A DNA stretch of 64,000 nt, from contig OZ076409.1 in assembly GCA_964187785.1 (NCBI GenBank), positions 36,334,001 through 36,398,000 on the forward strand, in the 5' to 3' direction. The notes under the pieces were generated by a model. That model was not told the origin of the DNA, searched no databases, and saw only the letters and a program-made list of their open reading frames with translations. The position numbers and the translations under genes were made by a program. This stretch comes from Amphiscolops sp. MND2022. Taxonomy: Eukaryota. Below are positions 17,103 through 40,461 of the stretch, one piece after another (positions within the stretch are counted from its first letter, which is position 1; every line of letters begins with the position of its first letter).

Positions 17103-17103
17103 T

Positions 17104-17121
17104 TGGTAAACTCGACGTGAT
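17104..17121 (+). other. Primer-binding site, tRNA-Trp type
   Basis: TGGTAAACTCGACGTGAT matches the canonical tRNA-Trp PBS TGGTGACCCCGACGTGAT at 15 of 18 positions, 1 nt after the LTR. Confidence 0.8.
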
Positions 17122-17528
17122 TCAAAATCCCACCCAAAAAAAGAGAAAAACTTTCAAGAAATTTTATATCATTGTCCCGTAAACCTCTTTCGTTTTCTCC
17201 TTCCAGTAAAAAACGTGTATGAAAAAGAACAAAAAAAGAAGGAGAGCTCAAAAAAATTAAAATACAGTAAAGCAACAAGAAGAAAACGAGACAGTAACGA
17301 AACCCGAATATCATTACCAGAATATTGTATAAAGAAACCAGAATTTTCGCCAGAAACAATATCCATAACCCCATAACCAAATATCCATACCACCAGAATG
17401 CAGAACACCATCGAAATTGGATCCGGAGACAACACTACAACTTCAACATCATCTCACCCAGAACCACAACACGCACCAGTCAACAGAGTCACCATGAAGC
17501 CAACTCCATTCTATCGCACGAACCCGAC

Positions 17529-18272
17529 TGTAACGGCAAGCTCTGGTACAGCAATATCAACCAACTTTGCAACTTCGACATGTTTAGAAAATTTTGTCAA
17601 AAATTCGTTCAAATCTGACGTGGCACTCAAACATGCTCAAGACGAAGTACCTGCCAGAAAAAGCACCCCAGAAAAGCAGAAACCGCCGCTCGCGACAAAC
17701 AAGCACCGGAGACGACAAAAAAGACGTCCCAGACGCATACAGAACACGGTATTGTGTCAATCTCTAGGAGATATCCATTACTACAGTAAAGGAAACCTGT
17801 GTTCCAGATGTTCGCCTGAGTATCCCTGCGGTGTCCTGTGTGGCAACTAGCGCTAGCGCTGGGAACCCGAGGTCAATTTTCATCAAATGACTCTGAACTC
17901 TTGATTTCTTGTTGTATTTTTTGATGTGGTAAATTGATATGCTCGAGAGCTGTTGTTTGACTTCTGTTTATCCAATTTGACGATTTTATCAGATTCTCCA
18001 ATATTACGGTTCAACCTTCATCGATTTTCAGCCCAATTTTTAAAGGCTAGTTGAGCAGTGGTCTTGAGTCTTGCAAGATGCCTGTTACTTTTATCAGTTA
18101 CAGACTAGGACCAGGCCAGAGAGCGTCCTACAAGACGGTTCCCCCACCTTGGGACTGGCTCCTTCGGAGGAAAAATGAGCTAGGGCCGCGGAGATCTAGG
18201 TCCCAGATTATATTCGCTGTTCTAGTTCCTCCACTCTACGTTGCGGTTCAAGCGCCAGCGCTTATCGTTACA
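17529..18272 (+). repeat. 5' LTR of the giant element
   Basis: Direct repeat of 35563-36293; by manual comparison about 9 substitutions plus one 13-bp indel. Confidence 0.97.
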
Positions 18273-18287
18273 TAGAAACTCATTTTT

Positions 18288-18305
18288 TGGCGACCACAGA
18301 GGGAT
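18288..18305 (+). other. Primer-binding site, probably tRNA-Arg type
   Basis: TGGCGACCACAGAGGGAT resembles the complement of the metazoan tRNA-Arg(UCG) 3' end, TGGCGACCACGAAGGGAC (first 10 nt identical). It lies 15 nt after the LTR end. Confidence 0.65.
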
Positions 18306-19439
18306 CGTCTTGGGAAGCTTTCCCTAGCGGTTTTTAAAAGATCTGGCCCCCTGGTGTTCAGCGCCAAGCCCGTTTTCGACTCTGGACAGGAGAAAAGAGC
18401 AGAGTTTTACTTCTTTTTAGTCGTATTACGTCTTACTGGAACTGGGAGAGGCGTTGAACCAGAGAAAATGCCGAAGAAAGCGTGTTTTCAGGTTCGAAAA
18501 TGGTATTTTTGGGCATTTTAGAAGGAAATCGCTCTTTATGTGTGATGTGTTGTGTACCCATCAGCGGGTACCTTTTTGCAGGTATAGAGGACCGTAGCAC
18601 GTGGCTACGGGTGTCTAACAGGTTTTTTGAGCTATTTTCAGCCATTTTATGCCATGCAAGAGGGTAACGGATGGATGGTTGACCATGCTCCAGCGAGGCG
18701 AAGGAGGGGACAAATCTTGTGTTGCCTACTTCCTATTCCCATTTCTCGTGGAGACGTCCTAGAGACAAGGTTTTTGGTGGACAGCAAGTACAACGACAGA
18801 CGGTGCTAACGGACCCACCAGCGTGTTTCTATCTGGTCTAGATGTGGAGAAATAACGTGGTGAAGTTGCACCCCCTATGACCAGATGAGTCGCTCAGATG
18901 GAGTATGGTTGGCGAAAATTTTGAAAATACACCTCTTTCGATGGAGAATCGTTGGTGCAGGTCAGTGACGTTCTACTATAAATGTAACGACACCCTACGA
19001 AGTGCTTTTCTGCGAAAAAGATAGCACTTGGAAAAAAACCCTCATTTTTGCGTTTTTTTGGTGTTTTTCTTGGTTTCGAGCACTAGTGCTCACAGAAGCC
19101 AGGAAAGTGTGGTGGAAAGTTTTGAAAAAGCAGCTGCAAGGCTCGAGAAAGCCGGCACGAGGCACGAAAGGCGAAGTTGAAGCCTTTGATTGTGATAAAA
19201 GCGCCAATTTGATGCCGAAAAATGTGAAAAAGTGGAAATTTGGCCAAAAAGGCACCCAAAATGTGAACGTACACGAGTGTGGAAGTGTAAAATGACAGTG
19301 TACGGCACTATCCCAAGTGTAGTTGACCCTCAGGATACTAATTGCAACTTTTGTAGCGGACTCAGGCAGCCTGGGGCTGATACAATGCGAAAAACTTGTG
19401 ATTTTTGGCATTTCCGAGTAGAGAAAGTGCATTAACCAA

Positions 19440-19780
19440 AAACACCCAGAGCAAAGCTTATTCGAAGAGAGCGGGCTCGAGCGCTCTCATTTTCGATTGT
19501 AGCAGCAAAAACGACGCATTGTGGTGAAAACCGCGTGCAAAAATTCCTTTTCAGCGTTGAGAAAAGTTGAAAAACCTTGATTTTTGGCCAGTTTCAGCAG
19601 TGCCAGAGTGCATCATTAAAACCTCTGGGGCACTCAGTGTTTTCGAGACCGGGGAGCCCGCGCGCTCCTATTTTCTGTTTTTATAATACAAACAACGCAT
19701 TGTGGTGAAAATTGCGTGCAAAATTCCTTTTCAGTGCTGAGAAAGGTGGAAAAACGCACTGAATTTGGTCAATTTTCCAC
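19440..19780 (+). repeat. ~180-bp diverged tandem duplication in the 5' leader
   Basis: The core ACGCATTGTGGTGAAAAxxGCGTGCAAAA(A)TTCCTTTTCAG occurs at ~19514 and ~19696. Confidence 0.85.
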
Positions 19781-20990
19781 AAAACCGGACTGTCTCTGAG
19801 CTAGGGTCGGGTCATCGATTCCTGAACCCTAGCCAAAAAGTGGTTGCATTTTCGTAACCACCACAAAAATTACCGTTAATGCCGAAAATTTGGCGAGCGT
19901 ATCGCTCACCAAAGTCGAGAAAAGCTCTCTGACGTTTCGACTTCAGAAAAGCACATAAAAGCTGAAAAAATCCAAAACTACAGGACTGTCAGTGCCTTAT
20001 ACCTAACGGGCACGACCAATTGAGGGTTTATCCCAGTGCTAAGGATAGTGGGGCAACACGTTGGTCCCATTTTGCCCGCCGTATCACTTCCTGAGGTGAT
20101 CTTCTTGGTCAAATTGTGAAAAAAGTAGTCAAAAACAGTGTTTTTTCGTGTACAACGTGCATAGTGGGTCGAAACCTCAAATAAGCGCTCGCGCTTCAAT
20201 TCGACCATTTGAGTGGCATTGTAGGTGCCTGCTGGCATAGACTACCAAGTTTGGTGCCGATCTGTCTGATACTTGTCGAGAAAATAGAAAAAACGTGGAG
20301 CCCAAAAAGGTGTCCAAAAAGGCAGTTTTTTCCTTAAGTTTTCCAAGTGACACGGGCACCTTAGCCAACGGGTGGGGCTATATTGCAGCCCACCATCGTA
20401 ACTTGTGCTAGTTCCTACGTTGTTGCAGAGAATTTGAGCTTGCTAGCTCTTTCCCGTGGACCGCAATCTTGAAAAAGACGTGAAAAACAGTGTATTTCGG
20501 TACATAGTGGTACCGCACGTCTGTACCTAGGTGAAACTGTGTAGAAAGGGCGCAGCTCAAAACTGTGTTCATTTTCGTAAACCGACGTGTACCTAAGATC
20601 TGCTGGTCAATTTTGGGCTTGATACAGCGCTTCCAGCGCACACACGAGCCTCTTGGGTGTTGTTGTGCGATTTTTGGAAAATTCAAAAATTCTGTGAAAA
20701 TCTCCCTGTGAGTGACCGCAGACTTTTTGCCCCAAACCAAGTTGATTTTCTAGCCCAGTGCGCCCGTGGGAAAACGCTGTGCAAATTTGAACAGCCTACG
20801 AGCTCTAGAACGTGTTTCGAAAAACCGAGGACGTTGAATACCATTAAATTTCTTAAGTGCTGACCGGGACGACCAAGGGATCAGCTTCCAATTGAAGACC
20901 CTGGTGCGTTCGGCGACCCAATTTGAGTTTGCCGAGTAATCGTGAGCGGTAACTCGATCGCTATTGATAAACGCGTTGGCCACCGAACCG

Positions 20991-23900
20991 ATGGCGGTGT
21001 CCCATACTGGTTCACAATCATGGGTCACGATAGAGGATTCGCGTTTTTCAGACGACATGTCTGACGAAGTCACTATCGAACAACAGCGAAAGAAGGAATT
21101 GGCCGCTATGGTTCCTCCCTCAGAGAACTCCAGTGTTTCTGCAAATTCGTGTCGAACTGAGCAGTGGGTCGACGAAACCTGCCGCGATAGAGCTAATGAA
21201 GTGGAAGAGGGCTGGCCTAATTCGAATGTGACCGATGAACTGGCGGCTGAGGAAGGGTGCTCGCGCGCACCCCCGGCTGGAGAAAGACAACTTGGCTCAC
21301 AAACTGACATGGAGCAGGACCTCACTTATGTGGGAGGCATGAGTTACGCGCGACAGCGGGGACTCGGGACAACTCGAGGACCTACCCGGGTCTGTGCCTA
21401 CGGGAAGCACAAGAAGATGCGACCACCTATACTACAGGTAGGCGAGCCACGTCAAGAGGTACCCCGTGTCAGGAGTATGACAGGCTCATTGGCCTCATCG
21501 CAACGGTCTTCAGTATACAAGGCAGCACTATTGGATGCCCAGGCCGAAACCCAACGGGCCCTAGCAGGTCTGGCCAGCACTCGTGCTGAATGCAATGAGC
21601 AACATCTTGCAATCGTAGAGAACATTAAAGTGATGCAGACGACGATGCGTGAAGGCCTGCAGGTCAGCGATCAATTACGCACCGCGCAGAATGTGCAAAA
21701 CGCTCGAGTGGACACATTGGGTCACCGGATAGGAGAGATGAATGACACGTTGATGGCTCGCGAGTTGCGCGTGGAAACGCAGATCAACGACTTGAGCAAT
21801 CAGATGCACACGGTACTCAATGCCATTGATGTCATGAGGCGTGAGAGGTCACTCCCGCGGCAGCCCAGTGCAAGTGGAGGCGTGCGGAATGGAGGTACAG
21901 TCCGTGTCTCGGAGCCGACGTGCCCGAGCCAGGTAGTGAAATCGGAACTGCCGAGCGCGCTAAAGCCTAGCACTTCCAGGCCGGCCGTGCCTGCGCCCCG
22001 GAAAGATGAAGGAGTAGCCGGAAATTTGGTGATAGCCACGCCTGAGGCAGAGCGCAAGCCTGCACGAGTGCAGATGAGGGGACATCACGACTCAGCAGAA
22101 TCATCGATGCCTTCTGCAATCCAGAGTACTACTCGAGATCAAGGCGTGGACCCGATGTCGACCATCTATCTTGATTCCTCGGTTGAAGTCGACCTATCTA
22201 ACACCAAAGCAACCCTAGGCTCTCAAACCGAGGGAGCAACGTTTGCAACTGCCCCTATTTCGATGTCAGGACCAGATTCCCTATACTTGACTGCAGACTT
22301 GTTAGCCGATCATGGATTGCCCTCGGGCACTCCCTGTGCTAGCAGCACTCGTAAAAAGGACGAAATCGCTGACCTGTCGATACAAGCCACTCTTGGTAGT
22401 CATGACAGGACGCGCGAGGGGGAGGCCAAGGCCGATGAAGGAGAAGCCATATCCCCCGAGCAGCTGAGATTCACGGCCGCCATATCAAAGGCGATGTCAA
22501 AAGAGTTAGCGCCCTTACTCGCCGGCAGAGACTTGGCTCAGGCGAGGCCCAATGTGTATCGCGGGTCCAAAGACGGATCCATTGATGGGTGGATCCTTGT
22601 TATGCAGAGATACCTGAAGAGAACGCAAACCAAGGTCTCAGCCGAGGACCAGGCTTGGAGCATCATCGGTCACCTTGAGGGTGAAGCCCGCAACTACATC
22701 ATTAACAAAACGGAATCCGAACGTGACACCCCTGAGAAGGTGTTCGAATTGTTATCCAGCCGCTTTGGCGCTGGAGGAAACCGTATGCAAGTGCGACAAG
22801 CTTTCCAGAGCCGCATTCAACAAGAGAAAGAAGACTGGATACAGTATTTAGACGCTCTAGAGGGTCTTCGGAGTCAAGGATTCCCACAAGAGGCAATCAC
22901 CACCAAGCGCTATGAAATCCTCCAGCGCTTCATGGAAGGTGTACGAGACCCAGGGATGAGGTGGGAGCTGGCCATAGTGTATGCCTCGGAAGTCTTCCTG
23001 ACCGAGCCACCTACGGTGGAATCCCTCCGCTTCACCACCCGCCAATTGCAGCGCAACCGTCCCAAACCTAACCAATTCCCTCAACCCTATGACCCCAGAC
23101 TAGCGATGAGGTCTCGACCTCATCCCTTTGCGCCACTACCCCCCAACAAAATGGTATTACCACAAGGAGTAATGCCTCCCCCACCTGCGAGTAATGCTCC
23201 CCCCAATCAAGCAGCAGTGCAGCCTGCGGCACGCCTGCCCGTTGGCGCGTGCTATAATTGCGGTCAAGCTGGGCATTTTGCCCGGGACTGTCCCACCCGC
23301 GATCAAGCTCGCAAACCAGTGGCAGCTCCTGAACCAGAAGGCGTGAAAGTCACTGCTGAAGACGTAACTGATGGCGTGTTGGAGAGCTATCCAGGCATTC
23401 ATCAGTGTGCGCACTGTGGAGTCTATGACCATGTGGATGTCCCCTGTAGTGAGCATTCTCAAGCTCCGAGGCCTAATGATGAAATGGCCTACAATCGATG
23501 GGCCGAGGTGGAATCCGCCGGTGTGGCCGCCCACACGGTACCCCTGGAAGATGATCGCGTGTTAATGCTACACCCAGCGGAGCCCCCAGCGTTTCACCCC
23601 CCACTAATAGTTACATGTGGGACAAAGCAGATTCAGACGTGCTTGGAGCCTACAACGTTCAATCCACAAGGGAGAACGTTGATCTCGATTCATCTTATGC
23701 TGGCAGCAGAGCAGGTGCGTAGACCAACGCTAACCTTGGCGAAACTCTGGGTTGAGCTATCTGTCCTCTACAACCGGATGGAATTGCCCCGCCCAAAACA
23801 GTGGCACGTCCCTGGAGAATCGGAGACCCTGACTACATACTCGCCAGTACCAGTCTGTGCAACGATGGACGGCGTGGACGTGAAGTTCGAGGCCTGTGTG

Positions 23901-24998
23901 GTGGTAGATGTAATCCCACCCGGCTTATGCTTGGGACCTCAAGAACTGAAATGCTATAATTTCAACCACCAAGAACCCACCGGGGAAGCGCGAATAGATG
24001 AGCGTGCGTCGCTCGTTGTCTCCTTTGTGGTGCCCCATGCAGCACCTATCCCACTGCGAAGCCTAGTGGACACTGGTTCCGGAGTATCCATACTAACCTT
24101 CTCCGCCTTCAACCGGGTAGCTGCACGTACCGGAGCGGTCCTGAAACCCTATCAAATTGATTTGTACGCTGCCAATGGGAAGACAATAAAGACTTTCGGG
24201 TTTGCTGAGCAGATACGCTTCCAGTTGGGAGGGTATGAACTCGAAACCAATTTCGTCGTGGTAGATGACGCAATGGGCGTGGAGGACTTTCTGTTGGGTA
24301 GAAACTTCCTCCGTTCCTACCAAGTCTTGGTAGATCTGACCTCCATGAAGATAGTGGTGCGAGCACCCGTGAAGCCCGTCTGGCATCATGCACACACCCA
24401 GGTAGGTGACACTTCGTTAACTACCCCCATTACCCTGGACAGTGACCTAGTCCTACAGCCTTTCGAGCGTACAGTGGCAAAGGCCAAACTTGTCACCAAC
24501 GCGCTTGAACCATTAATTTTCCAGACCGTTGCGCTTAACGCCTCGTTGTCTGATCCCTCATTGCAAAATACCATCTTCTTAGAGGACAGCGTGGCCACTG
24601 TCAGTGAGACAGGAACACTGTATGTGAGCCTGGTAAACCTCACCAGCAACCAGCAGCGTGTACGATGTGGTGCCCACCTAGGCACGGTAGTGCCTGTGTC
24701 TCTAATATACCAGGCTGTGCCCCAAAAGCTGGATGCTACTGTGGAAGCTGACCACAAAAGTGAAGCCGACAACAGTCGAGCAAATTTTGTATATAAAGTG
24801 TACAGTGAAATGAATCTATCCACTGCTTCTGAGTTAACTTCTTCATCTGAATTTGAGTTTTTGTCTGCTACGGATCCAAGTGAAGCGGGGCTTTCGGAGC
24901 GCGAGATTCGCAAGCGCACCGATCCCGACCTATTGGCCCCGATCCCTGGGCCCGATTCTCAATTGCAAGAAGTCAAGAAAGAAACTCTGGGGCGCTAG
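20991..24998 (+). CDS. gag: Gag-protease polyprotein of the giant element
   Basis: First ATG at 20991 within the 1344-aa ORF. Likely coiled-coil N-terminal part, capsid-like region (RPNVYRGSKDGSIDGWILVMQRYL), two CX2CX4HX4C knuckles (23250, 23406), and retropepsin LVDTGS (24069)...LLGRNFL. Confidence 0.92.
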   Translation: MAVSHTGSQSWVTIEDSRFSDDMSDEVTIEQQRKKELAAMVPPSENSSVSANSCRTEQWVDETCRDRANEVEEGWPNSNVTDELAAEEGCSRAPPAGERQLGSQTDMEQDLTYVGGMSYARQRGLGTTRGPTRVCAYGKHKKMRPPILQVGEPRQEVPRVRSMTGSLASSQRSSVYKAALLDAQAETQRALAGLASTRAECNEQHLAIVENIKVMQTTMREGLQVSDQLRTAQNVQNARVDTLGHRIGEMNDTLMARELRVETQINDLSNQMHTVLNAIDVMRRERSLPRQPSASGGVRNGGTVRVSEPTCPSQVVKSELPSALKPSTSRPAVPAPRKDEGVAGNLVIATPEAERKPARVQMRGHHDSAESSMPSAIQSTTRDQGVDPMSTIYLDSSVEVDLSNTKATLGSQTEGATFATAPISMSGPDSLYLTADLLADHGLPSGTPCASSTRKKDEIADLSIQATLGSHDRTREGEAKADEGEAISPEQLRFTAAISKAMSKELAPLLAGRDLAQARPNVYRGSKDGSIDGWILVMQRYLKRTQTKVSAEDQAWSIIGHLEGEARNYIINKTESERDTPEKVFELLSSRFGAGGNRMQVRQAFQSRIQQEKEDWIQYLDALEGLRSQGFPQEAITTKRYEILQRFMEGVRDPGMRWELAIVYASEVFLTEPPTVESLRFTTRQLQRNRPKPNQFPQPYDPRLAMRSRPHPFAPLPPNKMVLPQGVMPPPPASNAPPNQAAVQPAARLPVGACYNCGQAGHFARDCPTRDQARKPVAAPEPEGVKVTAEDVTDGVLESYPGIHQCAHCGVYDHVDVPCSEHSQAPRPNDEMAYNRWAEVESAGVAAHTVPLEDDRVLMLHPAEPPAFHPPLIVTCGTKQIQTCLEPTTFNPQGRTLISIHLMLAAEQVRRPTLTLAKLWVELSVLYNRMELPRPKQWHVPGESETLTTYSPVPVCATMDGVDVKFEACVVVDVIPPGLCLGPQELKCYNFNHQEPTGEARIDERASLVVSFVVPHAAPIPLRSLVDTGSGVSILTFSAFNRVAARTGAVLKPYQIDLYAANGKTIKTFGFAEQIRFQLGGYELETNFVVVDDAMGVEDFLLGRNFLRSYQVLVDLTSMKIVVRAPVKPVWHHAHTQVGDTSLTTPITLDSDLVLQPFERTVAKAKLVTNALEPLIFQTVALNASLSDPSLQNTIFLEDSVATVSETGTLYVSLVNLTSNQQRVRCGAHLGTVVPVSLIYQAVPQKLDATVEADHKSEADNSRANFVYKVYSEMNLSTASELTSSSEFEFLSATDPSEAGLSEREIRKRTDPDLLAPIPGPDSQLQEVKKETLGR

Positions 24999-27900
24999 CG
25001 CCTGCGAGTCCTTAGACAACACTCTTAACGAGTTTGATGACCTATTCATGAAACGCAAGGCGGATATTGGCCGCTGTACCATTGCTAAACACACCATAGA
25101 GGTAGAGCCTGAGGCTGTACCGCACCGTGAAGGAGCTCGCAGAATGTCCCCCGAAAAGGCTGAACGAGCCAACCAGGAGGTTCGGAGCTTATTGGCCTTA
25201 GGGATGATACAACCTTCACTGTCCCCATGGGCAAGTGGTATCGTAATGGTAAAAAAGAAAAGCGGGGAGTTACGTTTTTGCTGTGACTTCCGATCGCTGA
25301 ATGAAGTAACCATTAAGGATGCCTACCCCCTGCCCCGTATCGATGAAAGCCTGGCGCGACTGGACAATGCAAAGATCTACACCAGCATAGATCTTGCCTG
25401 GGCTTTCTGGCAAATTCCCTTGCGAAAGGCGGACCGCCACAAAACAGCCTTTGCCTGTGAGTTGGGACTCTTTGAATGGCGAAGAATGCCATTTGGCTTA
25501 TGCAATGCATCAGCCACCTTCCAGCGAGCAATAGCGCGAGCGCTGCACAAAATAGTCAATCGCAAAGGCAGCATGGTCATGGCGTACATCGACGACATAG
25601 TTATAGCAACTGAGACTGTGGAAGACCAAATGGCGCGTTTGCGCGAGGTTTTTGAATGCCTCCGCGAAGCTGGCTTCAAGTTGCGCGTGGCCAAATGCGA
25701 CTTCATGAAACCAGAAATCAAATATCTGGGACGCGTGGTCTCAGCAGAAGGTGTCAAACCGGACCCGAAAGCTGTTGCCAAACTGCGCGATTGGGACATC
25801 CCCCGCAACAAAACTGAAATGCAAAGTTTCCTGGGATTCGCTAATTATTATCGCGAATTCATCCCGTGGCATGCCAAGCTGGTGGCGCCCCTCCACGCCG
25901 TTACGGGACTGAATGCCACGTTTGCATGGGGTCCTGACCAACAAAAAGCCTTCAACGAAATCAAGACAGCATTGATCGAGGCGACTGCGCTCGCGCAGCC
26001 TGATTCAGAAGGAGAGTTTGTGCTGGACACAGATGCCAGCGCTGTTGCCATTTCCGGTATCCTACACCAGTGGCAAGGAGCTCCAGGAGAGCGACGCCTA
26101 CGACCGGTCATATACGGCAGCAAGAAACTGACCACCACCCAAGCCAAATATGGGGCACCCAAGCTGGAGATGTTTGCTGCCTACTACTTCATCCTCAAGT
26201 ACCACAGCTACCTTTGTCCCCGAAAGTTCACCCTGAGAGTCGACAACCAAGCCCTATCCTGGTTGAAAACCTACTCCACGGACAAAGCATTGATTGGACG
26301 TTGGATTATGACACTGGACAGGTATCACTTTCGTGTGGAACACAGACCACGAACGCAACACCGCAATGCTGATGGCTTGAGCAAACGAACCAACGATTAT
26401 CGATGCCGAGAACAGCAGCTTGCGCAGCTGCCAGCTACTGGAGAGCGTTGGAACTTCCTCTCGGCCGAGGAATTCGACAACCTCCCCATAGCCCCATGGT
26501 TCGACCTGCAAGGTCGAATCATTCCAAATCATCCTGACCTACCACCGCATCTGCAGAACTTGGAGCCTAAGGCTCCTGACCAAGCACTCCGTGTGCTTCG
26601 CCGAGTGCAACGAGCGAACAAGCGAGAACGACAGGCGAAGGCGCTAGCCGCGCCTTTACCACCTCAGCCTCCACCCGTACTGCAAAAACACGAAGACTTC
26701 TACCCAGACTATCCTGAAGACTGGATAGACGTCACCACTGAGGCGAGTGAGGATTACCTGCTGCCAACACATGCAGTAAATGTCCCCTCGCGCACCATCT
26801 ATTCTGTGACGGGAACGAGTAACGCCATGCTACAGAACTCTCCTGGTGGCGTGCGCGAGTCGATCATGGCCCTCAAGGACATAGACACCGAGCTCCATGA
26901 ACACACTCATACCGTGCATGGGATCAAGGATTTGGTGTTAACCCAAAACCGCGATGTCCATGTGCTAGCGCTGAAAAAGCTCGTGCAGTGTGAATCCCTA
27001 GATAATGATGTGTTTCCCGAGAACGTGCGTGAGTTCGCACGTAATTACTTCCGCCAGAAAAAGGACCTCTTGTTCATAAACAAAAATGATGTCCTTTGCG
27101 TGCAATACTCCCCCACCCAACGCCCACTGCACGAACGTCCGTGCATGATCATAATGCCTCAGCTATACCAGCACGAGATTCTGTTCCGCGCGCACGACGC
27201 AATGGGACACCAAGGTATCTCAAAGGTAGTAGCTCGAATTCAAGAGCGCCACACCTGGCCCGGCATACAGCGCAGTGTCGGTCGGTACGTCGGCCAATGC
27301 CTCACCTGCCAACAAGTACGTGACAAGCCTGGCGACGTACGATTTCAACTGAAAAACATTCAGAGCGGCTACTTCAACGAGTTCGTCCAATATGACCACT
27401 TAAAAATCTGCCCCTCTGATAACAACAACACTGGCATTTTGTCCATCATCGACCATTTCTCCAAATTTGCAGAGGCAGTCCCTTGTAGTCATCATGACTA
27501 TGACGCAGTGACCACCTCACGATTGCTGCTGCAGAAATGGTTTGCCCGCCACGGCACCCCCACTCGCATGCAATCAGACAATGCTCCTAACCTTACTGCC
27601 GAAGTCTCTAATGAGTTCCTAAAGGCAGCTCACGTCACTAAGGTGACCTCCACCGCCGGACATCCACGAACTCAAGGCTTGGTGGAACGGCAAAACCGCA
27701 CCCTCTTAACCTTGTTGCGAGTCTTTTGCTCACGTCGCATGCGCGACTGGGACCAGTGCTTAGATGAAGTAATCGGTGCCTATAATTCCACCAGGCACGC
27801 CACTACAGGCTTCTCGCCCTATATGTTAACAAGGGGTGTTGAGAAAGCAATCCCCCTCACCTTTTTATACCCTGAATTTGCAGCCAAGTCCTTCGATGCG

Positions 27901-28413
27901 CATGAAGCATACGTGGATCATGTGTTGGCTCGCCAACAAGAAATTCACGACTTGGTCCGGCGCAATACGCACCAAGCCCAATTGCGCCAAAAGCTGAAAT
28001 ATGATCGTGCTATCCGAGCACGAGCTTACCAGCCGGGAGAGCTTGTCTGGGTTTTTTGCCGCTACGTGCCGCAAAAAGGCTCCCCAAAACTGATGCGCGC
28101 CTGGCGTGGCCCGAACAAAATAGTGCAAGTTTTTCAAGAAGGACATGTCTATGTATTGGACACAGGCCAAAAGGTTAATTTTGAGCGCCTGAAACCTCAT
28201 CATAGTGGGCCCCTTGAGCTCGCCACCGCGCAAGCGGACAGCGGCGAAATAGTGGTACTCATGGACCCTGACCCTGAACGTTCTGTTGAAGCAGTTGACG
28301 ACGATAAGTCCCAGCCTTCATATAAAACTGAACAACTACTTTCAGAAGCATCTGACGTGTCCTTGCCTCCGCGCAAGCAACATTGGATGGATACCCGTCT
28401 GCGCACAAAGTAA
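24853..28413 (+). CDS. pol: Pol: reverse transcriptase, RNase H, integrase (+1 frame relative to gag-pro)
   Basis: SPWASGIVMV, DFRSLN, MPFGL, YIDD (25585); RH DTDAS..NADGLS; IN HDAMGH..CLTC, D..D..E core (YDHL, SDNA, VERQN) and WRGP. Confidence 0.97.
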   Translation: MSFCLLRIQVKRGFRSARFASAPIPTYWPRSLGPILNCKKSRKKLWGASACESLDNTLNEFDDLFMKRKADIGRCTIAKHTIEVEPEAVPHREGARRMSPEKAERANQEVRSLLALGMIQPSLSPWASGIVMVKKKSGELRFCCDFRSLNEVTIKDAYPLPRIDESLARLDNAKIYTSIDLAWAFWQIPLRKADRHKTAFACELGLFEWRRMPFGLCNASATFQRAIARALHKIVNRKGSMVMAYIDDIVIATETVEDQMARLREVFECLREAGFKLRVAKCDFMKPEIKYLGRVVSAEGVKPDPKAVAKLRDWDIPRNKTEMQSFLGFANYYREFIPWHAKLVAPLHAVTGLNATFAWGPDQQKAFNEIKTALIEATALAQPDSEGEFVLDTDASAVAISGILHQWQGAPGERRLRPVIYGSKKLTTTQAKYGAPKLEMFAAYYFILKYHSYLCPRKFTLRVDNQALSWLKTYSTDKALIGRWIMTLDRYHFRVEHRPRTQHRNADGLSKRTNDYRCREQQLAQLPATGERWNFLSAEEFDNLPIAPWFDLQGRIIPNHPDLPPHLQNLEPKAPDQALRVLRRVQRANKRERQAKALAAPLPPQPPPVLQKHEDFYPDYPEDWIDVTTEASEDYLLPTHAVNVPSRTIYSVTGTSNAMLQNSPGGVRESIMALKDIDTELHEHTHTVHGIKDLVLTQNRDVHVLALKKLVQCESLDNDVFPENVREFARNYFRQKKDLLFINKNDVLCVQYSPTQRPLHERPCMIIMPQLYQHEILFRAHDAMGHQGISKVVARIQERHTWPGIQRSVGRYVGQCLTCQQVRDKPGDVRFQLKNIQSGYFNEFVQYDHLKICPSDNNNTGILSIIDHFSKFAEAVPCSHHDYDAVTTSRLLLQKWFARHGTPTRMQSDNAPNLTAEVSNEFLKAAHVTKVTSTAGHPRTQGLVERQNRTLLTLLRVFCSRRMRDWDQCLDEVIGAYNSTRHATTGFSPYMLTRGVEKAIPLTFLYPEFAAKSFDAHEAYVDHVLARQQEIHDLVRRNTHQAQLRQKLKYDRAIRARAYQPGELVWVFCRYVPQKGSPKLMRAWRGPNKIVQVFQEGHVYVLDTGQKVNFERLKPHHSGPLELATAQADSGEIVVLMDPDPERSVEAVDDDKSQPSYKTEQLLSEASDVSLPPRKQHWMDTRLRTK

Positions 28414-28431
28414 CGTGCTGGAGGTTCCCGC

Positions 28432-30351
28432 ATGCACTACCAGCAATTCGACTACTCAACTTCGGGCACTGACGACGAGTTGTCCGAAATCATGCTACCG
28501 GTACCTCCTGATCCCGTTGATGCTGATCGCAGGGAGCCCGAACCCCAACTCCCTTCAGACCAATCAACATCACCTACCCATCATCTGCCTCAACTATTCT
28601 CCGACCATGAGCGCGCGCGCTCTCCGTCACCACGAATATCCTCTCCCGAAAAACAGCCCTCCTTACTGGGAACATCGGCCCCACTACTGACAAATCCATC
28701 ACTAACGAGTTTCCTCAACAACTATCCCATTTGGCCGGCCGCTACTTGCCTTCCTCTGAAATCCGCCACTGAGGATGACGACGCTCAGTCCAATGTCCCT
28801 ACTCTTCCCACAACATTGCCCGGAGCGGGGACCGCTCCTTCTTTCAAAAGGGGGAGGGGGAGACCACCCAAAACGCGAAAAAGGCTGGTCAGAGCGAAGG
28901 CAAGAACGAGGAAGAAAGAAACAACAACAATAATGCCGTCGGAAACAGTAATACCGACCGAGACTTCTGAGGGTCCCCGATACCAGCTGAGAAGCAGGCG
29001 GCAGCCACGCTATAAGTGCGGGACCTGTGGGCTGCGAGACTGTGTTTGCTGGCTAGCCGTCAATGAGAACCGGAGGGTTCCCACTGGAGCCCGGGCAGTC
29101 CCTCCAGAGCGGGGAGAAAATCTAGTACATCGCCTTACGGTGAGAGCTGAAAAGACTTATTCCTCCCTGGAACGACACGGAGACCATCCCGTGGATACTA
29201 TCCTGGAGAAGTTATCACTACCTGGAGTACCGAAGGCCCCATGTCCTCGATTTAAGGAGTGGACTAGCGACGGAAAAGGGTTAGAGTTCACCCTCGCAAC
29301 GGTGATGCCCCCAGTACCCAGCAATATTGCGTTTGGACCCTTCAACTTCGAGCGGGAGCCTGTGCAAATGGTCCGATGCATCACCGCTGATCTTCTCTGT
29401 GACAAATACGGAATTCACGTGGATCCGGGCGGAGTATACAGCCCAGCGCCGCACTGGTGGTTGCTGGTCACTGCTCCACGAGTGGAGGCAATAGTGGAAC
29501 CATTGCACCTGCTGTCCTGCTTGGAAGGTCTGAGGACCCTCACTACCGCGGACTTGATACTTTGCTTCCACATCAAAGACTGGTATCGTGGCAAAGTGAA
29601 ATTCGCGTGGTGGTTGGAGCTGATCATCACTTGTTTCCCCAATTATCCTCGCATTAGATTGCTGGACGAGTGGACTCATACTTTCGAGATTCCGCTTCCT
29701 CCGAAAGCCGTTTTGAGCACCCTAGACACATGGGTTAGGGCGGGCAGTGATAATCGAGCGATGCCACGCTCGGTATGGCAAGACCTGGCTGCAATCCAGG
29801 GGCGTACGCCCCGCGTATGCTTGCTTGCCGACAATGGGCCGGGGAGAGAGATTATCTACCCGGGAATCCTGCATCCAGCCCCAACAGAGCACCTCTCATT
29901 AGATGTGACTGATTTTCTTCAAGTAGAAGGTGATATGGTGTTAGCGTGTCCCGCTGACCTAGAGACCAACTCAGCTGCCCTACGGTACGTGCTACGAGAA
30001 TGCGGCAAGGAGAATGTATTCTCCTTGCGTCCTAAGGTGGGGGAGATTCTCACCATTCCTCCCGATATCAACCCAAATCCCAATCAGAGTATTCACTTGC
30101 TAATAATCAGAGCAAACCAGCGTACGCCGCTGCTCACAGACGACTACCTACGTTGTATGACGCACTTGATACAGCGTTTGATGGAGAAAGGATCCACGAG
30201 GGTCCACCTACCTATACTGGACCCAGAGCGACCCGCCCTTTCATTGGTAAACTTATACCATACCCTAACGAATTTGCTGGAGGGCACCGGCATTCACGTG
30301 GTGCTGCATAACCGCGTGTATGTGTCCATTCTGAACATAGGGCTGGAGTAG
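28432..30351 (+). CDS. In-frame post-integrase ORF: AT-hook, Cys cluster, two TARG1/OARD1-like macrodomains
   Basis: 639-aa ORF in the pol frame, 18 nt after a single TAA. Contains KRGRGRPPK (28846), RYQLR, CGTC-GLRD-CVC, and two blocks (~29323-29670 and ~29890-30318) that align by eye to the TARG1 macro fold. Confidence 0.7.
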   Translation: MHYQQFDYSTSGTDDELSEIMLPVPPDPVDADRREPEPQLPSDQSTSPTHHLPQLFSDHERARSPSPRISSPEKQPSLLGTSAPLLTNPSLTSFLNNYPIWPAATCLPLKSATEDDDAQSNVPTLPTTLPGAGTAPSFKRGRGRPPKTRKRLVRAKARTRKKETTTIMPSETVIPTETSEGPRYQLRSRRQPRYKCGTCGLRDCVCWLAVNENRRVPTGARAVPPERGENLVHRLTVRAEKTYSSLERHGDHPVDTILEKLSLPGVPKAPCPRFKEWTSDGKGLEFTLATVMPPVPSNIAFGPFNFEREPVQMVRCITADLLCDKYGIHVDPGGVYSPAPHWWLLVTAPRVEAIVEPLHLLSCLEGLRTLTTADLILCFHIKDWYRGKVKFAWWLELIITCFPNYPRIRLLDEWTHTFEIPLPPKAVLSTLDTWVRAGSDNRAMPRSVWQDLAAIQGRTPRVCLLADNGPGREIIYPGILHPAPTEHLSLDVTDFLQVEGDMVLACPADLETNSAALRYVLRECGKENVFSLRPKVGEILTIPPDINPNPNQSIHLLIIRANQRTPLLTDDYLRCMTHLIQRLMEKGSTRVHLPILDPERPALSLVNLYHTLTNLLEGTGIHVVLHNRVYVSILNIGLE

Positions 30352-30719
30352 CCCACTCAAAACATTTTTGTTGCCCCCCTATTCAATTTACCCACCCGAT
30401 AATCGTTATGCCTGGGAGGAAGTCTTAAACCATCCCATGAAATGATTACATTGTAACGTAGCGTTAGATAACTTCTATCTTTGTGTTCTAATTAGTTAGT
30501 TGAACTACAATTTAAACTTGTTGCGGTTCCCCTATGGAACCATCTTTGTACTATTGCTGCTGAGCGATGAGCCTTAAGCTCTCCCCACAATGCACTGGGT
30601 AAGCCTAACGGTTATCCTTTTTAGACCTATGATATAATGGCTTATTACCCCAACAACACGGTACCTTTTACGACGGGACCTCACGCCAATAGGACTCAAG
30701 AATTGCCTGCGCGAGCGCA

Positions 30720-31157
30720 GTGGCCGCCCTACTCACCCAACTAGACACAATGCAGACGCTGCCGGGCGTATCCGTGTCTCTGGTGACGGAAGTAGCCGGT
30801 TACCGTCGCACCCTAACCTGCCAAAACAATGCGTGGGATGGCCACGATCTGACGCACCAGTTCCTGGATGAACGTTCTACCACAATGCTCGGGCCCAGCC
30901 AAGGCACGAGATTCGAGCAAGAAGCCTCACTTTGTATGGTGCCTGCCAGCGTAGCAACAATGCCTCCTCCTCAGATGGTCGCATTGCCCCCACCAGCACC
31001 AAATCCAGGACCAATGACGCCAACTTATTCCGGTTCGCCTGCCTTTGGAACCTCATATCGAGCACCACACATGGTACTGCAAACCACTACTAATGCACCA
31101 GTCTCTGATCGGGAGCCCTCGGGTCCCGGTTACCACCCATACCCAACCCAGAGCTGA
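30720..31157 (+). CDS. Small Pro-rich accessory ORF of unknown function (start uncertain)
   Basis: 145 open codons with the same GC-rich composition as the other element ORFs. No recognised domain; may be a disrupted N-terminus of the downstream ORF. Confidence 0.4.
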   Translation: MAALLTQLDTMQTLPGVSVSLVTEVAGYRRTLTCQNNAWDGHDLTHQFLDERSTTMLGPSQGTRFEQEASLCMVPASVATMPPPQMVALPPPAPNPGPMTPTYSGSPAFGTSYRAPHMVLQTTTNAPVSDREPSGPGYHPYPTQS

Positions 31158-31339
31158 CGGGAAGGAGTACCAGCGAACAGGCCGTAATTGTGGCCTTGCA
31201 AGCAGTGGCGAACCATCCCAACTCCACCGATTTCGTCCGTGCCGTGGAGCAGAGAATCCCTGGACTAGCCACGTATCTGCAAGCTGCTGCTTAGCCCGCG
31301 GGCTGTGACCCTCCTGCGCCCCTAGTCGAAACGGCATCT

Positions 31340-34300
31340 ATGGAAATGGAAATTGTCGCTGGACCGAGTAACAGCGCAAGCGCTGCCACTGGCACACGAG
31401 AAGAAGCGGGGAGAAAGCGGCTAACTGAAGAAACTGTCTCAGTTACCCCAGCTGGCTCGGTAACCGAGAGCCCAACTAGTCGTCCCCCTCCCGACAAGCG
31501 CGCTGATGTACCTCGGCCCCAGCTGAACAGTGTGGTCATCCCTAGGCCTCCGTACCGGGTGGGTCATCTAGGCCGAAGCGCACCTCAAATGTCTTTAGCA
31601 GACGCGATCGAACAGTATGGAGATCCGGATGCAGGCTCGGAAGTGAGCTCTGTGCCCTCGGGCACCAATCTAGTAAATATGTCCCTGGAGATACCTGAGA
31701 CGGTGGAGGAAGCCCATCCTCCAGCTTTCCTCCCTCCATCTGACGACGTATCCGGCTCAGTAGTCACCAATGATAGCAAACGCATTTGGATGGCGGCTGA
31801 GCATCTCTACCCCAGTCAATGCGCTATCAAGAAAAGGACTGAAACGGAGCAAAAGGAGATCAACCGGACCACGATACCGGCGCAAGTCACGCGTTCGCTC
31901 CGCCCCCGTGACGCAGACATGTCGGAGCAGGCTTGGGAACAGCGTGCTCGAGAGCAGCTGCCTATGACAACCAACGATTATATGGCGCCCCTGCAACACA
32001 ATATCACTGAGCAATTCCCCGCACGGTATGTGTTGCGAGAAGGTGAGACATGGGATGCGAACGCCCGCTACGCTCGCAACCTGAGATCTTTGAAACCCCT
32101 ATTGAAAGCAGCTCTGCAGCGCGCGCGCTACTGCATGGCAGTTGATTCTACTTGCCGAAGTGACCTCCCTATTGACAATATAATGCCTGACGTGCTGGTG
32201 CTAACTATGCCCCTGTCTCGCTTCGCTGAGGTCGCTGAGATGGTTGGAGCCATATACGATCCAAACTTAAGAGGATCACAAAAGGAACCACCCCCACAGC
32301 GAGTGATCTTTGCCAATCTTCTGGATCACATGGCTTGCGAAGGGTTGCTGCACGACCTGGACGCCATAATGTCCAATGTCAGACGACTTGGAGACATTGC
32401 CGCCCTGGTAAATGAGGTGGTCGGTGCAATGGAACGTGCCGCAGGGATCCTTCGGGGTCGTCTGGGAGCGCTCGCGCTCTTTGTATCCCCACCAGGATTT
32501 ATGTATTGGCCACGAAGTCTGCAGCAGTTCGTCTACATTCTGTTGGAGGTGTGCAAGGCGCGCAGAGTCGAATTCGCCATCTGTGCACCGAACTTGCGCG
32601 TGGACCGAGAAGACCTGCGCCCAGATACCTTATCGTATCCAGCCTTCTTTGCTGCCGTATCTAGAGCGCTCGTGGCTATAGAACGCTCGGGAAACGCCCA
32701 ACTAACCATTGACGATGCTATCCTCTATGATTATGGAATGCGGATGGGCAGACTGGCCTTTGACCTTGACGGCAACCGCATTGCCCGAGAATCTAATGTA
32801 ACCGAACGAGAGGCTGTTCGCCGGTATAATTGGCTAGTGCGAAGAGATAAAGAAATCCCAGTGCGCGCAGAATTAGCCGACCTGACAAAACAATTTGGTG
32901 CATGGCCTGCAGCGCGCACCGTCGAGAGAACAATTCCTCAGATCCACTTCGCCTCGGGAATCGAGCCCGTGAAGCTGCCTGTAGGGATGCGGTGTATCGT
33001 AGCAATGGAAGCAACAAACCTGAAAGCAGAAGTCGACGCCGCAGCCACCACTTATGCTTATTGGTACCAGACTAGGTTTGCCACCAGAACCCTGGCAGAA
33101 GTAGCTCGAGAGCTCAATTGTCCATTGGAAGCCTTCTGTACCAGTCTTGGGCTGGGATGGAACCTAAAGGTACTGACTTCTGAGTTCTCGCTGACCTCTA
33201 CGCAAACGGACAAGCTGCTAGAAACGATTGGAGAGGCAACCGTCGGAGAAATACTAGCGCTCGCGCTAGCGATGGGCCCAACCAAGTTTGTAGCCGGACC
33301 ACTGGCCTTGTTAGTCGACATAGTAATTGCCTGCGATCTCACCGTGTTCTACAGCTATTTGGTCCTGGCACAAGGACAACTACGCAGCCTGACCCGATGG
33401 GGACACTTGATGACTTCCAAAGACCAGCAAGACTATTCCGCCCAACTGGAGCGCATGCGTGCGTCAATCCAGCACTGGCTATACTCCACCCTGGTATTCG
33501 CCTCCGGCCTATTCGTGGGCGTAGACCAATCCCAACCCCTACATAACTCCGACCAGCAGATCCCACGGGAAACGGCAGGATTCCCCATGCCGCAGCAGAT
33601 TGCAGATCTCACCCTGGCTGAAGTAGAAGATTTTGTGGCAGCAATGGCTCCTGTCTTGGCCCCTATCTTTGGCGCAGTGGGCGTGTGCCGATACCCAACT
33701 AAACCATTGGCAACAGCCGTCCAAGTGCACATGGTCTCCTTCAGTACCTACCTGCGGGGCCGTCCCTCACTGGCGTATCCAAGGGTAATAAATGCAGTGC
33801 TGAGTGGTGAGGTGCCGCATGGGTACACGACCATAAAATCCGAAAGAGAGTTGGAGGAGAACCTGATGGGTTTGCTGCGCGCGCGCACCAGGAAAGCATG
33901 TTCTCTACCCCGAGAGCATGGACCTGTGAACTGGTATTCCGCACCTCTCAGTTTGGAAGGGGTCCCCTTTAGGTTCCCCTGGAGTCAGGAGTTCATAAGG
34001 AAGGCGATTCGCGCCAGCACTAGTGCTGGTCCACCCGTAGATCCTTTATACTGCTTCAAATGCATCGCCTTCCCAAACCGCTATTGGAAGGAGCCGTTAG
34101 GTTGGCCCAGGGCAAAACCCGTTGGACGCGCCCCAGAGGTGTTCAACCGCCAAATCCAACACTTGGAGTCAGCCCAGATCCCAGGATGGATTGAAGGCGC
34201 TGCGCAGATCAGGCAGAGGAATCTCCAATCCCGCGTTATCCCATTCCCCAGGAAGTCGGCATGGAAACCTACGGGAAAGATGACCATATCTGGAGATATG

Positions 34301-34519
34301 TCCATCGTCCAGCATGATGAAATAAATTCCGTGTTGGGCTCAACAGAACGAGCGAGATGGGAAGAGTACTGTCTGAAGTTGGAGATTGTAAGCTTCCCTA
34401 AATGGAAGAGAGCTTGCGAGCTCTGCAGCCAATCTGGATGGATCTCACGCCGTGTAGCACTAGCGGTAGAAGGTAGAGCAGAGATAGCGAGACAACAGGC
34501 GTTCGCCGATCACTATTAA
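31340..34519 (+). CDS. Large accessory ORF (1059 aa) in env position with an SGNH/GDSL esterase-like domain
   Basis: Uninterrupted 1059-aa ORF between pol and the 3' LTR. Residues at 32129-32680 align by eye to SGNH blocks I-V. No signal peptide. A Ser/Pro-rich tail in another frame (to 34805) may belong to it. Confidence 0.8.
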   Translation: MEMEIVAGPSNSASAATGTREEAGRKRLTEETVSVTPAGSVTESPTSRPPPDKRADVPRPQLNSVVIPRPPYRVGHLGRSAPQMSLADAIEQYGDPDAGSEVSSVPSGTNLVNMSLEIPETVEEAHPPAFLPPSDDVSGSVVTNDSKRIWMAAEHLYPSQCAIKKRTETEQKEINRTTIPAQVTRSLRPRDADMSEQAWEQRAREQLPMTTNDYMAPLQHNITEQFPARYVLREGETWDANARYARNLRSLKPLLKAALQRARYCMAVDSTCRSDLPIDNIMPDVLVLTMPLSRFAEVAEMVGAIYDPNLRGSQKEPPPQRVIFANLLDHMACEGLLHDLDAIMSNVRRLGDIAALVNEVVGAMERAAGILRGRLGALALFVSPPGFMYWPRSLQQFVYILLEVCKARRVEFAICAPNLRVDREDLRPDTLSYPAFFAAVSRALVAIERSGNAQLTIDDAILYDYGMRMGRLAFDLDGNRIARESNVTEREAVRRYNWLVRRDKEIPVRAELADLTKQFGAWPAARTVERTIPQIHFASGIEPVKLPVGMRCIVAMEATNLKAEVDAAATTYAYWYQTRFATRTLAEVARELNCPLEAFCTSLGLGWNLKVLTSEFSLTSTQTDKLLETIGEATVGEILALALAMGPTKFVAGPLALLVDIVIACDLTVFYSYLVLAQGQLRSLTRWGHLMTSKDQQDYSAQLERMRASIQHWLYSTLVFASGLFVGVDQSQPLHNSDQQIPRETAGFPMPQQIADLTLAEVEDFVAAMAPVLAPIFGAVGVCRYPTKPLATAVQVHMVSFSTYLRGRPSLAYPRVINAVLSGEVPHGYTTIKSERELEENLMGLLRARTRKACSLPREHGPVNWYSAPLSLEGVPFRFPWSQEFIRKAIRASTSAGPPVDPLYCFKCIAFPNRYWKEPLGWPRAKPVGRAPEVFNRQIQHLESAQIPGWIEGAAQIRQRNLQSRVIPFPRKSAWKPTGKMTISGDMSIVQHDEINSVLGSTERARWEEYCLKLEIVSFPKWKRACELCSQSGWISRRVALAVEGRAEIARQQAFADHY

Positions 34520-35540
34520 CCTTCCAACCCATAACTTGGAACCAGACCCAGTTGGCCCGCCCTCGTCGCGAACGAGCCCTCAGTCCTCGCAGCAGCAGTC
34601 CGGAGAGCACACTGCCGAATTGACTCCCAATGCAGCACTAGTGCAGCCTATTGCCGAGTTGTCGCTTCCCGAAAGTCCGTCGGACTCTGAAACAGTTACC
34701 ACAGAAGTTTCTCCCAGACGTCGAGCGTCAGTGTCGACTGATAACCCAGAACAAAACTCAGATGATGCCACTAAAGAGCGGACCCGACGCAGTTCAGCTC
34801 AATAAACCCAGCCGCTAATGGGAGCGTTCGCGCTCCCTATACCCTCATAAACTGCCAACAAACAGTGCCTCAAAACTTCTCATCCAGAACGGTGCTATAG
34901 TACAAAGTGCAATTTTTGTTCTTAGTTATGGTTATATAATTAGTGTACCATTAGTGTTGCACTGGGTGTACGGCCAATAGAGTACGCCTGCCCCAGTGGC
35001 TTGAGTGACCAAGCAGAAAGAAAAGAAAACTATTGTTCAAAAAAACTATCATTTTCGTTGCGAACCGTTCGCGGTGTTTTTGAGTTGTCACAATCAAAAG
35101 AAGTCTTATCCCTCTTGATTGCGTTTCTTTCTAGTCTAGTGTTCTTCATCAATTTGGTTGTTCACCGTAAGAGCCCCCAAGCTCTAAAAAAAGTTTTTAA
35201 TCGCCTGAAATAAACTGAAGACTTGTAGTCTCAAATGGTAAGGAAAAGAAATTTTAGCTGACTTTGGTCGCAAAAAAGTTTTTACATAAGTTGACTGCCC
35301 AAACGAGTTTTAACCGGCTGAAAACTGTAGCTCTCGAGCTGGTGCTAAAACCTCGTTCATGTTTTGTACGAATAGCCAGGCAGTAAGCCCTTTTTTTTCT
35401 CGTATAAAACCGCAAAGTCGACCAAAATTGTTGCCGAAAAACAAGGACTCGTCCTTGTTCCCCGATGTGTGGATGATGGTTCCCAGCGGTCACTGTGATG
35501 CAGTTCCCAGACGATCCAGACGCCGCTTGCCAGGGACGAC

Positions 35541-35562
35541 AAGCCAGGAGCCTGGGGAGTGA
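35541..35562 (+). other. Imperfect polypurine tract of the giant element
   Basis: AAGCCAGGAGCCTGGGGAGTGA directly before the 3' LTR TG; purine-rich but interrupted. Confidence 0.5.
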
Positions 35563-36293
35563 TGTAACGGCAAGCTCTGGTACAGCAATATCAACCAACT
35601 TTGCAACTTCGACATGTTTAGAAAATTTTGTCAAAAATTCGTTCAAATTTGACGTGGCACTCAAACATGCTCAAGACGAAGTACCTGCCAGAAAAAGCAC
35701 CCCAGAAAAGCAGAAACCGCCGCTCGCGACGAACAAGCACCGGAGACGACAAAAAAGACGTCCCAGACGCATACAGAACACGGTATTGTGTCAATCTCTA
35801 GGAGATATCCATTACTACAGTGTTCCAGATGTTCGCCTGAGTATCCCTGCGGTGTCCTGTGTGGCAACTAGCGCTAGCGCTGGGAACCCGAGGTCAATTT
35901 TCATCAAATGACTCTGAACTCTTGATTTCTTGTTGTATTTTTCGATGTGGTAAATTGATATGCTCGAGAGCTGTTGTTTGACATCTGTTTATCCAATTTG
36001 GCGATTTTATCAGATTCTCCAATATTACGGTTCAACCTTCATCGATTTTCAGCCCAATTTTTAAAGGCTAGTTGAGCAGTGGTCTTGAGTCTTGCAAGAT
36101 GCCTGTTACTTTTAGCAGTTACAGACTAGGACCAGGCCAGAGAGCGTCCTACAAGACGGTTCCCCCACCTTGGGACTGGCTCCTTCAGAGGGAAAATGAG
36201 CTAGGGCCGCGGCGATCTAGGTCCCAGATTATATTCGCTGTTCTAGTTCCTCCACTCTACGTTGCGGTTCAAGCGCCAGCGCTTATCGTTACA
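35563..36293 (+). repeat. 3' LTR of the giant element
   Basis: TGTAACGG...CGTTACA; direct repeat of 17529-18272. Confidence 0.97.
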
Positions 36294-40458: not shown

Positions 40459-40461
40459 CCG

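Follow-up and report, generated by a model that had tools for sequence, protein, structure and literature searches.

A giant Gypsy retrotransposon lineage with 3-bp target-site duplications, an offset primer-binding site and conserved enzyme-like domains

A giant Gypsy long terminal repeat (LTR) retrotransposon of 18,765 nt occupies positions 17529-36293, on the + strand, of the 64-kb window analysed here (the whole stretch taken from contig OZ076409.1 of Amphiscolops sp. MND2022). It is a recently mobile, young member of a high-copy Gypsy lineage with several subfamilies. The lineage is real, multi-domain and under selection, and it belongs to a known kind of element. Its best-supported novelty is a 3-bp target-site duplication combined with an offset primer-binding site in a Gypsy element with TG..CA ends, followed by a tandem, inactivated TARG1 module. 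The duplication and the offset were not part of the first-pass annotation, which was made from the sequence alone, and they are the most distinctive feature of the element in our analysis. That annotation had described a young Gypsy element of ~18.8 kb with LTRs ~99% identical, and both points are borne out. The 5' and 3' LTRs, both with TG..CA ends, are identical in 722 of 731 aligned columns (98.8%), and gag, protease, reverse transcriptase (RT), RNase H and integrase are identified by Pfam matches.

Target-site duplication and primer-binding site

The ends of the element and its terminal signals are as follows.

17526..17528, +, 3-bp target-site duplication GAC, found again at 36294-36296, from the flanking sequence
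17529..18272, +, 5' LTR, 744 nt, TGTAAC..GTTACA, from the LTR alignment
18273..18287, +, 15-nt spacer between the LTR end and the primer-binding site
18288..18305, +, primer-binding site, 18 nt, complementary to host tRNA-Arg(TCG)
18306..20990, +, 5' leader, 2.7 kb, without a long frame
35545..35562, +, polypurine tract, its end 3 nt ahead of the LTR
35563..36293, +, 3' LTR, 731 nt

Deleting the element together with one GAC restores an unbroken gag frame in the element that hosts the insertion. A census of target-site duplications covered 39 copies, of which 34 had both ends and five were dropped with one end missing or unparsed. A 3-bp flank repeat next to TG..CA ends is present in 30 of the 34, one of these lying in an A run that would also fit 4 bp. 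One further copy has a 4-bp repeat only, and three have no exact repeat. When flanks were paired across different copies as a null, a 3-bp match occurred in 24 of 1,122 pairings. Three control Gypsy families, with seven copies in total, gave a 3-bp repeat in 0/7 and a repeat of exactly 5 bp in 5/7. The duplication therefore lies outside the 4-6 bp that are usual, if not strictly defining, for Gypsy. A 2025 survey gives 3 bp for the duplications of Troyka and 4-6 bp for those of all other LTR elements (PMC12440569).

The primer-binding site corresponds to the 3'-terminal 18 nt of the host tRNA-Arg(TCG). Its distance from the LTR is 15 nt in three subfamilies and 16 nt in a distant family of 41% identity. 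By comparison, six of six control copies outside the window, from two other Gypsy families, have no spacer, and their primer site follows the LTR directly. The 3' part of the primer tRNA (L061-L063) has 254 exact matches, and most of those listed lie in a tandem tRNA-Arg array with a period of ~174 nt.

The macrodomains

Two macrodomains lie behind the integrase. A 69-row macrodomain profile had human TARG1 as its top match in the PDB (E 0.023). The structure model of the region contains two confident domains (predicted local distance difference test score, pLDDT, 80.6), and Foldseek matched it to TARG1 (PDB 4j5s) with E 1.3e-8, a template modelling (TM) score of 0.83 and a root mean square deviation of 2.2 Å. 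This match applies to the model as a whole, and macrodomain 1 is assigned to the fold by hhalign (E 1e-4 against macrodomain 2, E 0.002 against an intact TARG1-like domain). The earlier proposal of two TARG1-type macrodomains thus stands for domain 2 by structure and less firmly for domain 1.

The TARG1 signature, TKx(30,35)Px[IL]GxGxD, comprises the catalytic residues Lys84 and Asp125 and a Gly-x-Gly diphosphate loop (PMC6397177). It is found in 0 of 69 rows of the lineage macrodomains and at all three loci of an intact family used as a positive control. In an alignment of macrodomain 2 to the intact TARG1 family (hhalign probability 95%), arginine replaces the lysine, aspartate and glutamate replace the glycines, and proline replaces the aspartate. 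Macrodomain 1 in the same alignment lacks the lysine and the loop glycines. The modelled TARG1 macrodomain fold is confirmed as present, with neither the catalytic residues nor the diphosphate loop. To judge by these replacements, both domains are likely unable to bind ADP-ribose or to catalyse, and the loss of the Gly-x-Gly loop makes ADP-ribose reading unlikely.

An intact TARG1 signature is present behind the integrase of another Gypsy family of the same genome, at 3/3 loci. This family (L113-L117) resembles the element in having a macrodomain at the Pol C-terminus that is detectably homologous to macrodomain 2. It differs in having a single domain with the full signature followed by an Env-like open reading frame (ORF), a 5-bp duplication and an adjacent primer site; its RT is 25% identical and distant in the tree. 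The family (L113-L119) is ~13.7 kb long, and its Env-like ORF has a furin-type site and two hydrophobic segments, without a Pfam match.

Coding organization

The internal part of the element is 17.3 kb long and contains the following coding features.

20946..24998, +, ORF1 piece 1: long N-terminal region, capsid-like domain, knuckle, pre-protease domain, protease, post-protease domain
23250, +, CX2CX4HX4C knuckle of ORF1
23553..23972, +, pre-protease domain, Glu in place of D-T-G, weak profile scores
24000..24362, +, aspartic protease, D-T-G at 24069
24390..24722, +, post-protease domain, resembling dUTPase only in position and pattern
24838..28413, +, ORF1 piece 2: RT (YIDD at 25585), RNase H, 240-aa linker, integrase (GPY/F-type motif at 28102)
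28414..30351, +, ORF1 piece 3: linker, Cys cluster (29017), two macrodomains
29326..29673, +, macrodomain 1, degenerate TARG1 type
29887..30333, +, macrodomain 2, TARG1 fold, without catalytic Lys/Asp or Gly-x-Gly loop
30637..34805, +, ORF2, in several pieces in the window copy, gaps near 30720 and 34506
32135..32704, +, putative SGNH-like alpha/beta domain of ORF2: Ser at 32147, Arg at 32618 where His is expected
32975..33694, +, helical domain of ORF2, without a known match

The order protease-RT-RNase H-integrase, the YxDD motif and the GPY/F-type motif, which reads W-R-G-P, are all present as in Gypsy (Metaviridae). Among solved structures the best RT match is Ty3 (E 8e-36), above the caulimovirus-type enzyme and foamy viruses as identified by molecule name. 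The frame change at the start of ORF1 piece 2 and the stop at its end are breaks of the window copy. In unbroken copies, a single frame of ~3,130 residues encodes Gag, Pol and both macrodomains, with a separate ORF2 of ~1,435 residues behind it; the single frame follows from four copies that are open over 3,128-3,132 aa. The macrodomains, which had been read as accessory cargo, are the C-terminus of Gag-Pol, split off here only by a stop. About 6 kb of mostly coding sequence had been placed after the integrase. From the stop at 28413 to the 3' LTR, ~6.1 of 7.1 kb are coding, in two frames, but two of the four cargo domains precede the RT.

Two other parts of Pol are also conserved. These are the Cys cluster ahead of the macrodomains (29017-29050) and the 240-aa linker from RNase H to integrase (26400-27150), for which the ratio of nonsynonymous to synonymous substitution rates (dN/dS) is 0.07-0.10.

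Copies, subfamilies and selection

When the element's own genome (1.07 Gb) was searched for the macrodomain region, 4,375 candidates were returned, and the 114 that were scored are all 96-100% identical; four of these 114 lie in the open frames of 3,128-3,132 aa. Twenty family-A copies were fetched, ten picked for long frames and ten by rank, as were ten copies of family B, eight of them picked for long frames, so that frame counts among the chosen copies are biased. ORF2 is one frame of 1,439 aa in 6 of the 20 fetched copies, and 16 full LTR pairs among the fetched copies are 98.4-99.9% identical. The exact pattern of the junction between LTR and primer-binding site from three subfamilies has 843 matches in the genome, and the reversed control has none. 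One family-A copy is directly preceded by a partial second LTR and primer site, in a tandem or recombinant arrangement (L038:1-664).

Homologue searches with each cargo region returned only unnamed proteins, at about 82%, 50-65% and 41-44% identity. The 41%-identical family is young and ~19.2 kb long, with a matching layout and an ORF2 of ~1,440 aa; of its 55 scored matches, nine lie in frames of 3,219-3,220 aa. The cargo layout is common to four subfamilies. The accessory ORFs are thus found in other copies and in diverged subfamilies.

All of the cargo is under purifying selection. The window copy was compared with four copies of one subfamily, ~75% identical in DNA. The pre-protease domain has a dN/dS of 0.04, with saturation in two of the four comparisons, the post-protease domain 0.10-0.12 and each macrodomain 0.03-0.04. 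It is 0.04-0.09 across ORF2, with 0.06-0.07 for the SGNH-like domain and 0.04-0.09 for the helical domain; for comparison, RT gives 0.02-0.04. Bootstrap upper bounds for the cargo are at most 0.19. The dN/dS check that the first-pass annotation had put forward therefore comes out as strong purifying selection on the accessory ORFs, at 0.03-0.12.

One subfamily (L132-L135) has an RT-RNase H region 90% identical to the window copy and an ORF2 that is only ~52% identical, in contrast to another subfamily with 92% and 80%, respectively. A swap of the 3' module is possible, judging from these identities.

ORF2 and the domains flanking the protease

The structure model of ORF2 has a pLDDT of 48.8 overall, and the alpha/beta and helical domains are better. 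Strands and helices alternate in the alpha/beta domain, at pLDDT 60-89. Foldseek of the whole ORF2 model against PDB and BFVD gave no match at E<=1e-3. Weak rows with E 2-5 include a GDSL protein and ChoE, an SGNH enzyme. The serine of the SGNH-like domain is kept in 29 of 29 rows covering the site, arginine stands at the expected histidine position in 31/33, Asp-x-Arg-Pro is kept in 31-33 of 33 rows and Asp-His in 31/31. Going by motif spacing, ORF2 has Leu, Leu and Arg at the SGNH positions of Gly, Asn and His. An Env role for ORF2 was considered and is not supported: ORF2 has no Env-type membrane anchor, no hydrophobic segment is common to the three ORF2 proteins tested, none occurs in P0041, and 35 rows gave no Pfam match at E<0.1.

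The pre-protease domain has glutamate where D-T-G is expected (31/33 rows). Against retropepsins it gave hhalign E 0.034 and 0.0095, in the C-terminal half only, the best among the controls, and it is likely a degenerate retropepsin. The post-protease domain compared with dUTPase-like domains gave weak hhalign values of E 0.048-0.16, again the best of the controls, and no Pfam match to dUTPase (PF00692). Searching the PDB and the family databases with single cargo sequences returned nothing useful; light-harvesting, ribosomal and enterotoxin rows were set aside as non-significant or implausible. In a ~16-kb Gypsy family of the same genome (L106-L108, L122-L131), the region from protease to RT includes a Pfam match to dUTPase. 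The LTRs of this family are 1.5 kb long and enclose a long frame, and a frame of 290-360 aa precedes the 3' LTR.

The assignments as second retropepsin, dUTPase-like and SGNH domains are thus at the level of motif and position and are not confirmed. Of the four accessory folds suggested at first, the TARG1 macrodomain is upheld by structure and the other three stand as motifs. The suggestion that catalytic residues are lost throughout holds for the macrodomains; the SGNH-like domain keeps its serine, and for the three motif-level domains a loss is conditional on the fold.

A related element in metagenome contigs

An RT-RNase H scan of metagenome contigs yielded 24 loci. Two near-identical loci among them, L137 and L154, are 50% identical to the lineage and form a clade with it at 98/100, in a tree of 27 rows from which six short rows were omitted and in which the elements have no clade names. 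Their gene order is as in the lineage. They contain a pre-protease domain (score equalled by 0 of 200 shuffles) and one macrodomain-like C-terminus (equalled by 1 of 200). A separate ORF of 1,800 aa has G-D-S with Gly at +22, Asn at +52 and His-Pro at +163, and its spacing of Gly and Asn is that of the ZfL2-1 esterase (PMC3905857). ORF2 and this ORF share a 24-column match with E 0.016, and the ORF is at most a putative homologue of ORF2. The SGNH region of this sister element, used as a single query, had no match in the genome that holds the window. A macrodomain scan of metagenome contigs and an RT scan of viral contigs found no relative. The C-terminal part of the third ORF (L137:18899-20098) looks by eye like a DEDD-type exonuclease and has no match in Pfam or NCBIfam.

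Surrounding sequence

The giant element is nested in a ~5-kb Gypsy element (16932-17528 and 36294-40634), within its gag frame. The 173-nt LTRs of this smaller element are 97% identical and, by alignment, end in TAAA, not CA. A further ~5-kb Gypsy element at 42845-47849 has LTRs 94% identical, a primer site that adjoins the LTR and flanks GGCCA/GGCTA, which are 5 bp with one mismatch. Numerous short dispersed repeats in both orientations, at 3800-16900, 40700-40930, 49300-49900 and 56300-59100, are likely non-autonomous DNA transposons.

Discussion

We lean towards reading the element as a distinct Gypsy lineage with 3-bp duplications that has kept enzyme-derived domains, which likely serve its own particle in binding or as a scaffold and not in catalysis. 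Of the groundwork we are highly confident: the autonomous-type Gypsy layout, the complementarity to tRNA-Arg, the 3-bp duplications, the conserved cargo and the inactivated TARG1 fold. The integrase would cut its target with a 3-base stagger, and the right end of the complementary DNA would have about 15 extra bases to be trimmed. The macrodomain pair may descend from a TARG1 carried by a retroelement, by way of duplication and inactivation. Other Gypsy elements carry a chromodomain behind the integrase. The macrodomains, at the site described for it (PMC12440569), would likely tether to a protein or nucleic-acid partner and not to ADP-ribose. The SGNH-like domain of ORF2 likely binds membranes or lipids without catalysis, which would serve transport or assembly of the particle. 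The ZfL2-1 esterase likewise still binds liposomes when its active site is mutated (PMC3905857). More speculatively, the pre-protease domain could pair with the active protease and regulate it. The idea of dead enzymes as binding modules is plausible as a hypothesis. A bolder version is doubtful: a new giant Gypsy clade in at least two distant hosts, whose 3-bp stagger and offset primer site arose apart from Troyka, whose TARG1, SGNH esterase and duplicated protease became pseudo-enzymes, and whose protease would form a single-chain pseudo-dimer that controls polyprotein processing.

Several observations weigh against these readings. The SGNH fold of ORF2 has no significant score in any fold or profile search, and its invariant serine could belong to an unusual active site. 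The pre-protease and dUTPase-like folds depend on weak profile scores only. ORF2 profiles fit the 1,800-aa ORF of L137 and L154 no better than shuffles (18-28 of 200 as good), and the LTRs and target-site duplication of these loci lie beyond the DNA examined. Finally, dS is 0.9-3.0 and near saturation, which makes the dN/dS values, drawn from the window copy and four copies of one subfamily, approximate.

The serine of ORF2, its Asp-x-Arg-Pro and Asp-His motifs and the glutamate of the pre-protease domain are shared by subfamilies whose identity falls to as little as ~41%, and selection on the cargo is nearly as strong as on RT. Both facts would suit cargo that is still enzymatic with altered chemistry, ORF2 acting as a serine hydrolase or acyltransferase using arginine, the pre-protease glutamate in a hybrid Asp/Glu site, and the macrodomains on another substrate. 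We consider this unlikely, because the block II glycine, block III asparagine and histidine are absent by motif spacing, and the TARG1 lysine, aspartate and both loop glycines are replaced. Alternatively, the inactive macrodomains and ORF2 could be counter-defence decoys that sequester factors of the host's ADP-ribosylation or small-RNA pathways; the expansion of the lineage would then be explained. The several young, high-copy subfamilies are in line with this, as is the subfamily with a 90%-identical RT but a ~52%-identical ORF2, which is what conflict-driven module swapping would give. Selection on the cargo is, however, strongly purifying and not diversifying, the ADP-ribose loop is lost, and large Gypsy families that lack this cargo are abundant too; the decoy explanation appears improbable.

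A neutral origin of the cargo, as captured DNA or as an insertion nested in the element, is suggested by the frame breaks of the window copy, but the layout is kept in four subfamilies and frames are unbroken elsewhere. Neutral capture is ruled out by dN/dS of 0.03-0.12, and we attach almost no probability to this explanation. There is a small chance that the element is an ordinary giant Gypsy family whose 3-bp duplication and cargo are already catalogued in Repbase or Dfam, since the cargo types are each in print separately and Repbase reports lie outside the literature searched. The literature search yielded no such family, however, and the 2025 survey, by a Repbase curator, gives 4-6 bp for LTR elements other than Troyka (PMC12440569).

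Annotation tools that require 4-6 bp duplications would overlook the copies of the lineage favoured here. Such a lineage would mean that the integrase stagger changed twice. A TG..CA Gypsy lineage with 3-bp duplications also violates the 4-6 bp rule as worded in the survey text (PMC12440569). Because the intact TARG1 of a retroelement and an inactivated, selected duplicate pair occur in one genome, the step from captured enzyme to pseudo-enzyme may be traceable domain by domain.

Comparison with known systems

Troyka elements, or Kuafuorterviruses, are likewise animal LTR retrotransposons with 3-bp duplications (PMC12440569, PMC11673190). As described there, Troyka has CG..CG ends, LTRs of 100-400 bp and an internal part of up to 7.7 kb, whereas the element has TG..CA ends, a 744-bp LTR and 17.3 kb. 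Troyka has a CX2CX8-10HX4C knuckle, an IADD/VADD/LADD RT motif and no GPF/Y, whereas the element has CX2CX4HX4C, YIDD and W-R-G-P. Membership in Troyka is excluded by these five features (termini, knuckle, RT motif, GPF/Y and size), and the 3-bp duplication would therefore be convergent.

A search of the literature found no report of the combination of cargo in one element; Repbase, Dfam, subscription journals and supplements were outside this search, among them the Troyka and Kuafuortervirus supplements, which list many elements. TARG1/OARD1 shares the fold of the macrodomains, and the element differs in having a tandem pair fused to integrase with the signature in 0/69 rows. Among endogenous retroviruses, those of fish may include macro-domain ORFs (PMC4977317), and the available text of a review of retroelement accessory domains does not mention the macrodomain (PMC6338049). 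The ZfL2-1 ORF1 protein also has a retroelement-borne SGNH domain, which is an active enzyme in the ORF1 of a non-LTR element (PMC3905857), whereas the element has a putative SGNH fold without His, Gly and Asn.

Burro/GYPSM1 of planarians is giant and of high copy number, with a very long polyprotein containing accessory domains and a dUTPase-like domain between protease and RT (PMC6431247). At more than 30 kb, Burro is larger than the element described here, and its accessory parts are BIR, BCL2, MATH and ankyrin domains and an in-frame Env, with no mention of a macrodomain or SGNH domain in the text available (PMC6431247). Vesta/Juno of bdelloid rotifers have a dUTPase between protease and RT and a GDSL/SGNH esterase as a third ORF that replaces env (PMC5408684). 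Their catalytic residues are intact, and the parts of the paper at hand do not mention a macrodomain pair or a 3-bp duplication; inactive GDSL derivatives are reported from Athena-L (Penelope-like) elements (PMC5408684). The term "undescribed system", used when the element was first noted, was thus too strong, as a giant Gypsy with a dUTPase-like domain, a GDSL/SGNH third ORF and macro-domain ORFs are all in print, and each cargo type is already known separately in retroelements.

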